Assembly (NCBI RefSeq): GCF_054482525.1 | Contig: NZ_CM137006.1 | Length of the DNA stretch: 64,000 bases | Reading direction: 5' to 3' (one strand) | Position numbers: made by a program | Shown: in pieces, positions 33,001 through 39,000 of the stretch | How positions within the stretch are numbered: the stretch's first letter is position 1 | Layout of the letters: each line of letters begins with the position of its first letter

Positions 33001-36000
33001 TTACTCTGCATGTTATCTGGCCGTTTCTGTGGATCTGGGCGACGCTCTATCAACCGGAGCGTGGCTGGGGTATGCAGTCACATGTTGCGTCGCAGGAGAA
33101 AGCGACTGACCCGGAAATCGCCGCACTTTCTGACCGAATTTCCCGGCTGGAGCATCAACTCGCCGCCGAGAAAAAGACTGACTATTCCACGTTCCCGGAG
33201 ATCTAATTATGGATCTATTGATCGTTTTAACTTACGTGGCGCTGGCGTGGGCGGTCTTTAAAATCTTCCGCATTCCGGTGAATCAGTGGACGCTGGCGAC
33301 GGCGGCGCTGGGAGGCGTGTTTCTGGTGAGTGGTTTGATTTTGTTGATGAACTACAATCACCCTTACACTTTTACCGCGCAAAAGGCAGTGATAGCGATC
33401 CCCATCACGCCACAGGTGACGGGAATTGTTACTGAAGTCACTGACAAGAATAATCAGCTTATTCAAAAGGGCGAGGTGCTTTTTAAACTCGACCCGGTTC
33501 GTTACCAGGCGCGAGTTGACAGACTTCAGGCTGACCTGATGACGGCGACGCATAATATAAAGACGCTGCGCGCGCAGCTCACTGAAGCGCAGGCCAACAC
33601 CACCCAGGTTTCAGCGGAGCGCGACCGTCTATTTAAAAATTATCAACGTTATCTGAAAGGCAGCCAGGCGGCGGTGAATCCGTTCTCGGAACGTGACATC
33701 GACGATGCGCGGCAAAACTTCCTCGCGCAGGACGCGCTGGTGAAAGGCTCGGTGGCGGAGCAGGCGCAGATCCAGAGCCAGCTCGACAGTATGGTTAACG
33801 GCGAGCAATCGCAGATTGTGAGCTTAAGAGCGCAACTTACTGAAGCAAAATATAACCTTGAGCAGACTGTCATTCGCGCACCAAGCAATGGCTACGTTAC
33901 TCAGGTACTGATCCGCCCAGGTACATACGCAGCTGCCTTGCCGCTACGTCCGGTGATGGTTTTCATCCCCGAGCAAAAACGGCAAATTGTCGCCCAATTT
34001 CGGCAAAACTCGCTGTTACGTCTGAAACCCGGCGATGATGCGGAAGTGGTGTTTAACGCGCTACCTGGGCAGGTGTTCCACGGCAAACTGACCAGTATTT
34101 TACCTGTCGTGCCAGGCGGTTCGTATCAGGCGCAAGGGGTATTGCAATCATTAACGGTCGTGCCCGGCACGGACGGTGTGCTGGGAACCATTGAACTGGA
34201 CCCTAACGCTGATATCGATGCCTTACCCGACGGCATCTACGCCCAGGTGGCAGTTTACTCCGACCATTTCAGCCATGTTTCGGTGATGCGGAAGGTGCTG
34301 CTGAGAATGACCAGTTGGATGCATTATCTTTATTTGGATCATTGAGTAGGGAAGGGGGAGATTATGGAACTTTGCTCCCTGTAAGGACTAATTATTTTTG
34401 CATATTACTTCATTGGCTGCGATGATTTTTCGTTAATATCCATTATGTTAAGAAGTTCGGGATGAGTGTGAACTCATTGGATTTTTTATCCGTCTTGATC
34501 TGCCGAAGGATCAGACCATACATTGTCGAGATCGCAATGATGATATGAGTTGTTCCTCTGCCACGGCTCTAATCAAAAAAGAGCAGGAGTGCTTTTCCAT
34601 CTATTGCGATGATGGCTTTATTATCTGAAGGATGACAGTCACATTTAAAAATATTTAATTTATAGATCACAATGTAGGTTCATGTAATATATGTATACAA
34701 CTATTTTTCTCTTCACTTTTAATTATCGTATTCATTATAACACTAAGTTAAAAAACTCCTGGAGAGTGAGTCATTAATATATTTTTAAATATAATTAAGT
34801 TATTATTCATCGATGCATTTTATAGAATCATCAATGGCTACAATAGTACTATTAACTCTCCAATTTATATTTTTATTATCATTGCAAATATTAACTGAAT
34901 CTATATCAATGATTTTTTTATTTTTATCTTTTATTTACAGTTTCAATGCAATCAGCGACAAGTTGGTGTGGATTTAGATTCTTCAGATATGGTCTTATGA
35001 TCTTTCCCTTGCTTAATAAATAGCATGTATAGGATTCGGAAAGTCCAGCATCTATTTTGTACATCATTATTCTAGATAAGGATGTGAGAAATGCCTTGTT
35101 ATCATTAGCAGCCATATATGCCAGTCCGAGTTCAGCCTCTGCGGCTTTACATGAAAAATAGCTAAGTGAACACGCTTTTCGTCCCTCTTGGGTACTGGCT
35201 GATATTAGTGCCCATAATATTGCCTTGTCTGCCAAATCCAACTCTCTCTGAAATTGGTTTACAGTAACTGCATTCGCAGAAATAGAGAAAAAAAGCACAA
35301 TTGTTAATAACCTTGCCATATTTCTAGTCCGTCACTGTTAATGTGCTATCTGGCTCTGAAAATATTAGCTCATTTAATTTTTGCATGTCATTAGATGAAC
35401 CAGTTATACAACCCTCGGAACAGAATCGAGGTCCTAAAGATGGACCAAAAGCGTTTAAACAACTATGTGTTAAAAATCCATCACGATTATACGTTTCTGT
35501 ATTTGCTGACGGTACTAAACGTATACCATTAGGTTTTCTATTAGTTGCTCCAGGACCATTAACATTCCAGCTCCATACCCCTGGAGGTATTGGGCCTCTA
35601 TTTTGTAAGTGTGTACAACCAGGATTATTTTTACATTGCATATTATTACCATTATTACCAGAGGCGACTGAAATAGTAAGCACACCATAAGAATTATCAT
35701 CACTTGGCGTATCTGAAACGCATGAAAGCATACCTAAAGTTATGCTGTATAAACAGGTCGCTAATCCCAACGGGTCAATATCAGTTATCGGATTCAACGG
35801 ATACTGATAAAAATTCCATCCCCCCTTCAGTCCAATCGGATCCTGAGTGATATACCGCCCCTGCAGCTGGTGCGGGTTCTCTTCATTCAGCAGGTTGCCC
35901 CACTCATCGTATTCTGCGCACCATTCTGTTGCCCCTTCCGTGCTGATAAGCACCAGCGGCAGGCCGCGATGGTCGCAGTGGTACAGGTGGATTTTTCGCG

Positions 36001-39000
36001 CCGGCGTGTACACCGGGTCCATCTGGTTTTGCATCTGCGCCACCGTCAGGCCGCACGATGCCAGCCAGCGTCGGCTTTCCTCACTCACCCGGTCAGCCAG
36101 GATTTCACTTTCCAGCCGGTCGAGCATCTGCACCGTGCCGGCGGGAATACCTCACTGTGCATAGGCAACTCACGCTATGAACGCTTCAGCTTATCAATAA
36201 CGGAAGTTATAATTTCATTGTCATCAAACTTGTACAACATAGTATCTAAAACAGGAAGTAGCGTTTTATCACCTAATTCACCCGCAGCTTCAATGATATC
36301 ATCATAAACAGTATTTTTTTTTAACTCATCGCATAAAACAGATAAAACCCTTTTATCTTTTCTGTAGGAAAGTCCGATTATTGCTTCAATACGGACTTCC
36401 TCATTTTTATCCTGAAGCATCTCCACAAAATAATCCCTAATATCACTATTATCATATTTATTGATATTTATTGCAAATGCGGCCCAGTTTCTGACATCTC
36501 CATTTGGATCTTTTAACAGATTAATCAATAGTGGAATTGTTTCTTTATCATTGATAACAGAAATAGCAAATGCCGTAGCACGTCTGACATTAGCCGATTT
36601 ATCAAAAGCAGTAATTTGAGATTGTTCTACTATTTTAGGTGAATAAATTGGGTTTTTCTTGCATCGCTGAGCAGTTGACTCGATTGCTGTAGCTCGAACG
36701 CAAGCACTTTTATCATTCAGTGCCATCTTTTTTAAAATATTAAAAACGCTATCTTCGCATTTTTTGCAAACTTTTATTTGCCCGAGTATAAATGCTCCTA
36801 TATCTCTACGGATATAATTTTTGTCAGCGCAGAATTCAATTGCCAATCTAACAGCGTCTTGCCCACCTCTTAGCTGCAATACTCTGGCAGATGAAATCCT
36901 TTTCAATGAATTGCGATTATCAAGTAAGCGAAATAATTCATCATCATTTAGTTTCTTACATTGATTGTATAAACCATACTCTTTACTTGCCTTTCTTTTC
37001 TGGTATGTATTCGACATTGCAGGAACCTCCATAAAGACTATCTTTTTCTATCGTTTGACTGTCTGGAGTCCTCCACCTACTCTGCCATCAGCACACACGA
37101 TGTTTGTTTATCCTTACATACTTATTTTCCGTGGCCAAAATTTAGAATTCTCCCGTCATTTTTGCCTATTTCTATAATAAAAACCCTACCAGCAATTTGG
37201 TCTGATTCAATGGTGCCTTCAACAATCCAACTTGTTGGTAATTCCATGATTTTGTATGGTTTTTCTTCTTCTTCTTCGGCATCATGTCCATAACGATTTT
37301 TAACATACATCTCAGCTAATTCCAATGCTATAGCTTTATTTTTGACCAAATTTCTAACGGTGTATTTCCCCTCACTTTCATACTTGCGCATTATAATAAT
37401 ATTATTACACTGCGCCCATGTGTTGTATGTAAAAATAAAGATACAATCACATAGGTTCTGAATAATATTTTCTTATACGTTGTCATGTATTTTGCAAACA
37501 TTAGGCAATCCTTTTCCATTTATTATATCTTTCCCATGATTATCTATTGCTTTAAAATTTTCACCTATTGACCTTGAATTACTACAATCACTTCCAGTGA
37601 AATCTGAGTTATTCAGAATAGCATTCATCAGAGCCGCATTGCGAAAGACAGCATTTCTAGTTGATGTATGTTGAATCATTACATTTCTTAAATGAGTTTT
37701 TTCAAATTTCGCCCCATCAAGACAATAACCATTGAGGGTGGCACGATGTAGATTCATCCCGCTAAAATCATATCCAGCAAGAGTGGTACTATCTATCTCA
37801 AGAAATTTATTGGTTATTAAAAATGCGATTCTTATCATCTGTTCCTCCAATCATCTAACTCCCGAAAAATTTGAAAACCAGAACCTCGCTTAGGCCTGTG
37901 TCCATACTACGTGGGTAGGATTATTCTACGTACTACGCTGTTGTCCCTTACGTGCTGATAAGCGCCAGCGGCAGGTTATTCGGTTTGCGTCGTTGAGTTC
38001 ACTACACTAAAACTCCGTGCCCATATAACCCAAGTCGGAGGCATGCCTTCCTCTGGTTCGTTCCATCTAAAATGTCTATACATAACATGGTTATTCAATT
38101 ATTTTTTCTTTGAGTTTATTCTCAATCCAGCTGTCTTTATACCTGATGAAAATTTGACATTCACCAATATTATCAATGTCACCAACATTTGTGTTTCGAA
38201 TTTGACCAACAGCAACTATAGTTGATTCAAAATATTCAACATTGACATTATCTGTAATTATTGAAATTATATAATCATCTGGAATAGAGCCATTAGGAGT
38301 TATATTGAAGAAACTAACATCTGAAAATACCAAATAACCATCTTCTAAGTCTTCATTATCATAAAAATTCCATTCTGTTGTACCATAGGCTATCCTTGAG
38401 ATTAAATTAACCTGAATTCTAATTTGTTTACTCCATAAATCAAATTCAATTTTTTATTGCTCGATCACCAAGATATATTCTATCAAACATATTACCCCCC
38501 TATTCTAAAAATACTCAGGCATTCCGCACATTATATCAGCCTCATCTTGATTGCTTCCCGTTTCCCAATACGGCGGCGCGGGGAGTCATAAAGGTAAGAA
38601 ATTTCCAGCAGTACGGCGTCCTATTGTTCACGGCGGTAATGCACCAGCCAGTATTGGCTATCGTAGTGATAACCGTGTAACCTGCCGCCGCATCGCGTAT
38701 CTAATGTTCATTCTTTTCCATAAACCGTCCGTACACATTGTGATAGTAAAAATACAATACATCTTCGCTGATGCGGTTATTCTGCTGCATGTGGGAAGCG
38801 CCGAATACTGCTCCCGGTATGGCCAGTAATTACTATTTAGTACGACGTTAGGGGGAGTCACTTAATCTCACAGATACTTCAAGTAACAGATGAAAATCGC
38901 TCCTGAAATGAAAAAGAAATTTTTTTGAATGTGTTCCTGTCAAATCAAGTGGTTTTTTCGTCGATATGTAGAGTCATATTGTACACAAAATAGTTACGAA

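Follow-up and report, generated by a model that had tools for sequence, protein, structure and literature searches.

Does an orphan toxin tip lying downstream of a full-length rhs gene make a locus ready to change its weapon? The question is raised by a stretch of Escherichia coli DNA of 64,000 nucleotides (contig NZ_CM137006.1 of RefSeq assembly GCF_054482525.1), hereafter called the window, in which the rhs core's 3′ end occurs twice, once inside an rhs gene of full length and once in an orphan fragment with a tip of its own. From the sequence, an original prediction had described the two copies as poised for recombination, with the orphan tip taking the place of the deployed toxin. If such switching occurs, both the toxin fired at neighbours and the immunity that is kept change, which would shape competition between strains in the gut. 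Our analysis indicates that the locus is, very probably, the standard Rhs arrangement of a main gene plus an orphan at the E. coli rhsA site, produced by repeated C-terminal displacement. The repeat is a true substrate for recombination, and the orphan is not poised but decaying.

The flanking genes, yibF and selA on one side and yibH, yibI and mtlA on the other, show that the locus is the E. coli rhsA site, as in K-12. In a sequence search, the 9.7 kb around the repeat was 100% identical in E. coli 19KM1776 and 99.9% identical in PCN033; strain 1190 likewise carries the locus. Every rhs-related gene here is carried by the minus strand. Read in this direction, the full-length rhs gene is followed by a 189-residue open reading frame (ORF), an NTF2-fold immunity gene, a DUF6258 gene and a 54-nucleotide vestige of the rhs core. 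Then come a pentapeptide-repeat remnant, a second NTF2-fold immunity gene, yibA with its HEAT repeats, the orphan and finally the immunity gene Imm57. Because the genes lie on the minus strand, the right-hand copy of the repeat belongs to the full-length gene (40076-44263) and the left-hand copy to the orphan (35324-36133), which corrects the earlier description of the two copies. The G+C content amounts to 57-68% in the rhs core and 24-45% in the tips and the intervening array, the core fragment of the orphan standing out as an island of 59%. This contrast between the core and the tips and array is the classic Rhs pattern (compare PMC2935791).

Sequence search, domain matches and annotation all agree that the repeated segments are the 3′ core end of the full-length gene at the rhsA locus and that of the downstream orphan. 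That the copies are near-identical, similarly oriented and about 4.8 kb apart was confirmed by a repeat finder and by base-by-base comparison. The copy of the full-length gene extends from 40569 to 40991 and that of the orphan from 35796 to 36134, both on the minus strand. With the repeat finder, a first block was delimited in which 35861-36134 matches 40718-40991 over 274 nucleotides, with 95% identity and an offset of 4857 (block 1). A second repeat family, at an offset of 4773, relates 35760-35871 to 40533-40644. As shown by base-by-base comparison, it contains a single exact run of 72 nucleotides, 35796-35867 being equal to 40569-40640 (block 2), and the exact runs of block 1 measure 86, 36, 31, 27 and 25 nucleotides. 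An internal deletion in the orphan copy had also been noticed in the original prediction, with a size of about 87 bp; the deletion is indeed present and measures 84 bp, the difference between the two offsets (4857-4773). At the 5′ end of the orphan fragment, weaker homology containing a 1-nucleotide indel reaches to about 36160. At the opposite end, the main and orphan sequences begin to diverge completely a few codons ahead of the DPxGL-type motif.

The runs of 86 and 72 nucleotides are far above the 20-30 bp that had been named as too short for RecA-dependent exchange. In E. coli, the minimal efficient pairing length for RecA recombination is usually given as about 25 bp, and the exact runs here exceed that length. 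A chance repeat was ruled out, given 274 nucleotides at 95% identity where none would be expected; moreover, a 45-nucleotide piece of block 2 occurred exactly twice in the window and not once in 100 shuffled versions. Two other explanations, copies on opposite strands and copies unrelated to the rhs core, were also discarded, the first because the orientation is direct with both copies on the minus strand.

The full-length gene (40076..44263, minus strand) was recognised as an ORF of 1395 residues, by Pfam and NCBIfam matches and by its RefSeq annotation as an 'RHS element core protein'. The encoded protein consists of a PAAR-like N-terminus, a shell and core of YD repeats, and a C-terminal tip of 152 residues. 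In Pfam, it matches RHS_repeat (in 11 stretches), DUF6531 and RHS; in NCBIfam, it matches RHS_core and positions 1-76 of the TIGR03696 profile, with 83 bits. The tip, which follows the ...IDSMGL cleavage motif and is encoded at 40076..40534 (minus strand), has a G+C content of about 43-47%. Within the cleavage motif of this gene (40535-40573, minus strand), a serine takes the place of the proline usual in PxxxxDPxGL; in the orphan, the motif is the canonical IDPLGL. From its position, the 189-residue ORF at 39510..40079 (minus strand), whose start overlaps the rhs stop codon and whose product begins with a signal-peptide-like N-terminus, is the presumed immunity gene of the current tip. Neither the 152-residue tip nor its 189-residue partner had any Pfam or NCBIfam match, even at E<=5.

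The orphan fragment (35324..36133, minus strand) is an uninterrupted ORF of 269 residues starting with GTG at 36133; in RefSeq, a 135-residue 'tlde1 domain-containing protein' is called from an internal ATG. Its tip, the 145 residues encoded at 35324..35761 (minus strand) after ...IDPLGL, has kept its frame. The L,D-transpeptidase-like character that had been proposed for this tip was upheld by a match to Pfam PF10908 (Tlde1), with 32.8 bits for the whole orphan and 35.3 bits for the tip alone against a gathering cutoff of 30.1. The catalytic motif of Tlde1 has been given as HXX14-17-(S/T)HGCh (PMC9638812). In the orphan tip, the corresponding sequence is H-x15-SEGCI, in which the first histidine and the cysteine are kept and a glutamate stands for the second histidine. 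The same substitution is found in the intact alleles L002-L004, which are tips of full-length Rhs-Tlde1 genes of other strains (described below) and differ from the orphan tip at 3-8 residues.

The position of the 84-bp deletion is of importance for what recombination could yield. The segment exclusive to the full-length copy lies at 40641-40724 (equivalently 40634-40717). It is in frame and flanked by the 7-bp direct repeat GCTGCAG, and in the orphan the gap maps to the GCTGCAG at 35861-35867. The orphan copy thereby lost 28 residues, and it matches the TIGR03696 profile at positions 42-76 only, scoring 35 bits where the main gene scores 83. In solved Rhs structures, among them 7q97 (RhsA of P. 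protegens) and 8cp6 (Tse5), the lost residues correspond to a strongly conserved stretch immediately ahead of the first DPxGL. This stretch lies in the C-terminal plug and aspartyl-protease domain that seals the Rhs shell (PMC8636562; PMC8765631). The autoprotease has been described by a catalytic dyad, D1324/D1346, 22 residues apart (PMC8765631), and its motif as a pair of DPLGL sequences with a spacing of 17 residues (PMC8636562). The counterparts in the window are QDPIGL and ID(S/P)xGL, with the same spacing, and the orphan retains the two aspartates. The idea that the gap removes a catalytic aspartate was therefore rejected, the loss being of the stretch just upstream. The junction between yibA and the orphan, including the 1-nucleotide indel, is common to yibJ of K-12 and to the orphan of strain EF7-18-51 (locus L005). 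Because these two fragments with the same junction have the 84 bp, the gap is a secondary, lineage-specific lesion.

The partner gene of the orphan is damaged as well. The Imm57 immunity gene (34804..35319, minus strand, identified by Pfam, by RefSeq and by allele comparison) begins 4 nucleotides past the orphan stop. As compared to L002, the closest intact allele, a 5-bp deletion in an AAATA repeat shifts the frame, so that the protein is shortened from 173 to 131 residues (ORF 34924-35319) and its final 43 residues are gone. The truncated protein still holds a complete Pfam Imm57 domain. A 173-residue allele has the accession WP_000113245.1. In K-12, O157, PE164 and PI24, the Imm57 alleles carry an independent frameshift, the loss of 1 nucleotide in a T-run within the signal-peptide codons near the start. 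PE164 thus pairs an intact full-length Rhs-Tlde1 gene with a frameshifted Imm57, which would be odd if the toxin were in use.

What would a crossover between the two copies produce? A RecA-type event, either intrachromosomal or between sister chromatids paired unequally, would remove 4,857 bp if it took place in block 1 and 4,773 bp if it took place in block 2. In either case, the rhsA core would be joined in frame to the Tlde1 tip, and the tip now in place would be lost together with its immunity gene and the array. Both offsets are multiples of 3, hence the fusion in frame, and a block-2 chimera that we constructed in silico was translated without a break through to the Tlde1 stop. The geometry and the frame thus bear out the proposal that a crossover would delete the intervening array and place the orphan tip on rhsA. 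The two products would however not be equivalent. The block-1 product is predicted to have 1360 residues and a core without the 28 conserved residues; it probably could not fold, seal or cleave properly. The block-2 product, of 1388 predicted residues, would retain an intact core. Because the orphan gap lies in the plug domain, only crossovers in the 72-nucleotide block would give an intact Rhs-Tlde1 core. When each exact run was weighted by its length minus 25 bp, a crude procedure that serves for illustration only, about one third of the crossovers fell in block 2. The position of small lesions matters: it is the 84-bp in-frame deletion of the plug domain, together with the 5-bp deletion of Imm57, that determines from which crossovers a working weapon would result. 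As in the Salmonella case studied by Koskiniemi 2014 (PMC3967940), a crossover between main gene and orphan also removes the main immunity gene, so that the event would be tolerated mainly after a prior duplication.

In order to look for the predicted collapsed architecture in nature, 5,426 complete E. coli genomes were surveyed. Loci with the gene order yibF-rhs(Tlde1)-Imm57-yibH were found in Ec73552, 2013C-4282 and PE164 (L002-L004) and in PI24 (L008). The architecture predicted for the crossover product hence occurs in other E. coli strains. Their identity to the predicted chimera is 93-97%, and in the protein sequence of the core they are about 95-96% identical to the window. With identities of 95.6-97.3% to the chimera, L002-L004 were ruled out as recent recombinants of a window-type array; they may be either ancestral or the outcome of older re-fusions. 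A clean natural recombinant at rhsA is provided by EF7-18-51. Its orphan equals orphan 1 of K-12 at 402 of 402 positions upstream, and then orphan 2 of K-12 at 134 of 135 positions downstream; judged by these sequences, it is a recombinant between two orphan core ends, having lost the tip of yibJ together with yibG and the second core fragment. It is the only clean orphan-by-orphan recombinant that was found. The Tlde1/Imm57 module was present in 3,480 of the 5,426 genomes at a coverage of at least 80%, mostly as a decayed allele 90-95% identical to that of the window, and it adjoins yibH in all rhsA loci inspected. This position at the yibH edge fits the view that Tlde1/Imm57 is the oldest tip of the site, repeatedly displaced. 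The module thus appears as an old and widespread resident, full-length in few strains and decayed in most. At the rhsA locus of E. coli ST648 (L012 6080-9032), a transposase of the ISAs1 family (H-repeat) lies between an rhs fragment and Tlde1/Imm57, with Imm57 intact; this arrangement is another route of array remodelling.

Taken with the gene order, the data are best accounted for by the following history. Incoming tips, each with a piece of core, would have entered through homologous recombination at the conserved core end. With every such insertion, the older Tlde1/Imm57 module would have been displaced downstream, towards the yibH edge, keeping about 340 nucleotides of core. Since the displaced tip carries core, the two core ends would then form the 4.8-kb direct repeat. 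In this lineage, the orphan has decayed, through the 84-bp in-frame deletion between the GCTGCAG heptamers and the loss of the C-terminal 43 residues of Imm57. The anatomy of the locus, the frames, the homology, the identities of the domains and the distribution in the population are observed; we infer this order of past events at the locus, and also that recombination between the copies would proceed at a measurable rate in this strain. Of the claim that the locus is poised, the part that concerns a genuine recombination substrate stands. The rest is overstated in view of the gap, of the truncation of Imm57, of the loss of the current immunity gene upon crossover and of the absence of a fused allele from the genomes surveyed.

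Several observations weigh against this history and against the part that recombination plays in it. No match of at least 99% to the predicted chimera was found in the 5,426 genomes, the best full-length match being 97.3%. In the same set, the 84-bp gap is absent from all full-length rhs and Rhs-Tlde1 genes. About 35 complete genomes carry the Tlde1/Imm57 allele of the window, as recognised by the 5-bp deletion, and all of them have it as an unfused orphan. Complete genomes are blind to rare events within subpopulations, so that switching at low frequency is neither shown nor excluded by these counts. The disabling effect of the 28-residue loss is predicted from the sequence, and the 131-residue Imm57, its domain being complete, may still confer immunity. 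Finally, judged by single-nucleotide polymorphisms, the orphan is about 95-97% identical to each of orphan 1 of K-12, L002 and the main gene of the window, with mosaic patterns. With such a mosaic, displacement, recombination of one orphan with another and gene conversion are all candidates for its origin.

The alternative that survives best concerns the genes between the two copies. The region 36175..39341 (minus strand) is occupied by an array of five immunity-type genes devoid of toxins, as defined by Pfam and RefSeq annotation: the NTF2-fold immunity gene at 38994-39341, the DUF6258 gene at 38091-38450, the pentapeptide-repeat remnant at 37473-37850, the second NTF2-fold immunity gene at 37122-37391 and the gene of the HEAT-repeat protein YibA at 36175-37032, all on the minus strand. 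Toxin-less immunity genes cannot be produced by recombination between the main and orphan core ends; the array must therefore owe its shape to deletion events of another kind. The region could have been retained for immunity against the Rhs toxins of competitors, including Rhs-Tlde1, the orphan toxin and its core repeat being mere hitch-hikers. Strains armed with full-length Rhs-Tlde1 do circulate, and protective orphan immunity is discussed for Rhs systems (PMC10539506). Strong selection of this kind is however difficult to reconcile with an Imm57 that is truncated here and independently frameshifted in K-12-type alleles, and several genes of the array are flagged by RefSeq as frameshifted or partial, that is, as pseudogenes. 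We consider retention for immunity possible but rather unlikely as the explanation of the region; it is in any case compatible with the repeat acting as a substrate for recombination.

The vestige within this array was a third candidate partner for recombination. This rhs core remnant of 54 nucleotides, located by the repeat finder at 37922..37975 (minus strand) just downstream of the DUF6258 gene, is 85-87% identical to both main copies, with a longest exact run of about 16 nucleotides. It was ruled out as a partner, being too short and too diverged. Its 5′ junction (...CGAATAA joined to CCTGCCGCTGG) is shared with a Tlde1 orphan linked to DUF6258 at the rhsB locus, on the nikR side, in strain D8 (L007 7236-7463). 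Such a common junction suggests movement of modules between rhs loci.

In line with the original prediction, the Tlde1 tip would be a standby cassette under selection as an alternative weapon, the repeat being maintained for switching as in evolved Salmonella. The tip ORF is indeed intact and differs little from the tips of full-length alleles, the 72-nucleotide block beside it is perfectly identical, and the fusion would be in frame. Other strains carry full-length Rhs-Tlde1 at the rhsA locus, and switching has a precedent in Salmonella LT2 (PMC3967940). As to delivery, there are no genes of a type VI secretion system (T6SS) within the window, the delivery system itself not having been examined; for PCN033, whose locus is 99.9% identical, a functional T6SS is reported (PMC4882540). 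Against this stand the deletion in the plug domain, the 1-nucleotide indel at the 5′ side and the truncated Imm57, which are all signs of relaxed selection. Moreover, not one of the roughly 35 genomes with the allele has switched, and with a switch the gene for immunity to the toxin that siblings currently deploy would be deleted. The perfect identity over 72 nucleotides requires no special selection, since this stretch is nearly invariant in all E. coli rhs alleles that were aligned. A tip maintained for switching is improbable.

That the orphan is translated alone, from the GTG at 36133 or the internal ATG, and acts with Imm57 like a toxin-antitoxin pair, as reported for a Salmonella orphan (PMC7043789), is scarcely credible despite the unbroken 269-residue ORF and the 135-residue RefSeq product, since Tlde1 enzymes target periplasmic peptidoglycan (PMC9638812) and a product with neither a signal peptide nor a delivery domain would be a cytoplasmic fragment without a target.

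A separate suggestion concerns the heptamer itself, which might be a preferred short-homology breakpoint for tip rearrangements at the core/tip boundary of rhs genes. The 84-bp deletion joins two GCTGCAG heptamers (35861-35867 in the orphan; 40634-40640 and 40718-40724 in the main gene), and the crossover in EF7-18-51 (L005 ~7736-7810) was mapped within or adjacent to the downstream heptamer. On the other hand, the crossover deduced for PI24 (L008) lies some 50-70 nucleotides further downstream, and two events are too few to tell a hotspot from a coincidence. We regard this suggestion as very doubtful. If it were true, tip exchange at clade I rhs loci would proceed partly through a specific site of microhomology and not through general RecA homology, and the reshuffling of orphans that have very short or diverged core fragments would be explained.

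Elsewhere in the window, a large YadA-like trimeric autotransporter adhesin of about 1750 residues is encoded at 21025-26277 (minus strand), with an adjacent DUF3251 gene, between lldP and yibL; its homologue is frameshifted in ST648 (L012). A small accessory patch at about 51551-53708, flanked by aldB and by a gene for a GH127 glycoside hydrolase, contains a type I restriction endonuclease annotation on the minus strand and a hicA/hicB toxin-antitoxin pair.

Overall, the arrangement at the window locus can be compared with three Rhs systems and one family of enzymes. Jackson 2009 (PMC2935791) described C-terminal displacement, in which dissociated tips accumulate as direct repeats and recombination in the conserved core end is the proposed driver. 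As in that description, the full-length rhs gene of the window is followed by a near-identical core piece in the same orientation with a non-homologous tip of low G+C content, and the fragments form direct repeats, some of which are degenerate. The window departs from those arrays by the internal 84-bp in-frame deletion in the orphan core. It also departs from the statement in the same paper that clade I loci of E. coli are generally without downstream dissociated tips; both the rhsA locus of the window and that of K-12 have them.

In Salmonella LT2, recombination between main gene and orphan was shown experimentally across 522 bp at 95% identity (Koskiniemi 2014, PMC3967940). The window resembles this case by a homology of a few hundred base pairs at 95% identity and by the loss of the main immunity gene that fusion of the orphan tip would entail. 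In contrast to the continuous 522 bp of LT2, the homology in the window consists of 274 and 72 nucleotides split by the 84-bp gap of the orphan, the copies are separated by a 4.8-kb immunity array, and the immunity gene of the orphan is truncated. Whereas recombinants were detected experimentally in LT2, none is documented for the allele pair of the window.

The third Rhs system is the rhsA-yibA-yibJ-yibG locus of K-12, with which the window shares the yibF...yibH site, yibA, an identical junction from yibA to the orphan, and Tlde1/Imm57 at the yibH end. In K-12, however, the main tip differs and there are two orphans, yibJ being followed by a decayed Tlde1 that has an internal stop; the Tlde1/Imm57 allele of K-12 reaches only about 90% identity to that of the window. 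The window has a single orphan, in which the yibJ-type junction leads straight to an intact Tlde1 tip, and extra immunity genes upstream. The tip itself resembles the Tlde1 effectors of T6SSs (PMC9638812) in scoring above the PF10908 threshold and in having the signature His...Ser-x-Gly-Cys-hydrophobic with the right spacing. It differs by SEGCI in place of (S/T)HGCh and by its fusion to an Rhs core, the effectors being stand-alone proteins. Since Jackson 2009 and Koskiniemi 2014 have already described the mechanism, the window is an ordinary, partly decayed instance of it and holds no novelty beyond it. With the principle established by these systems, the value of the locus is that of a worked example, which shows that more than the presence of an orphan is needed for a locus to be ready to switch.

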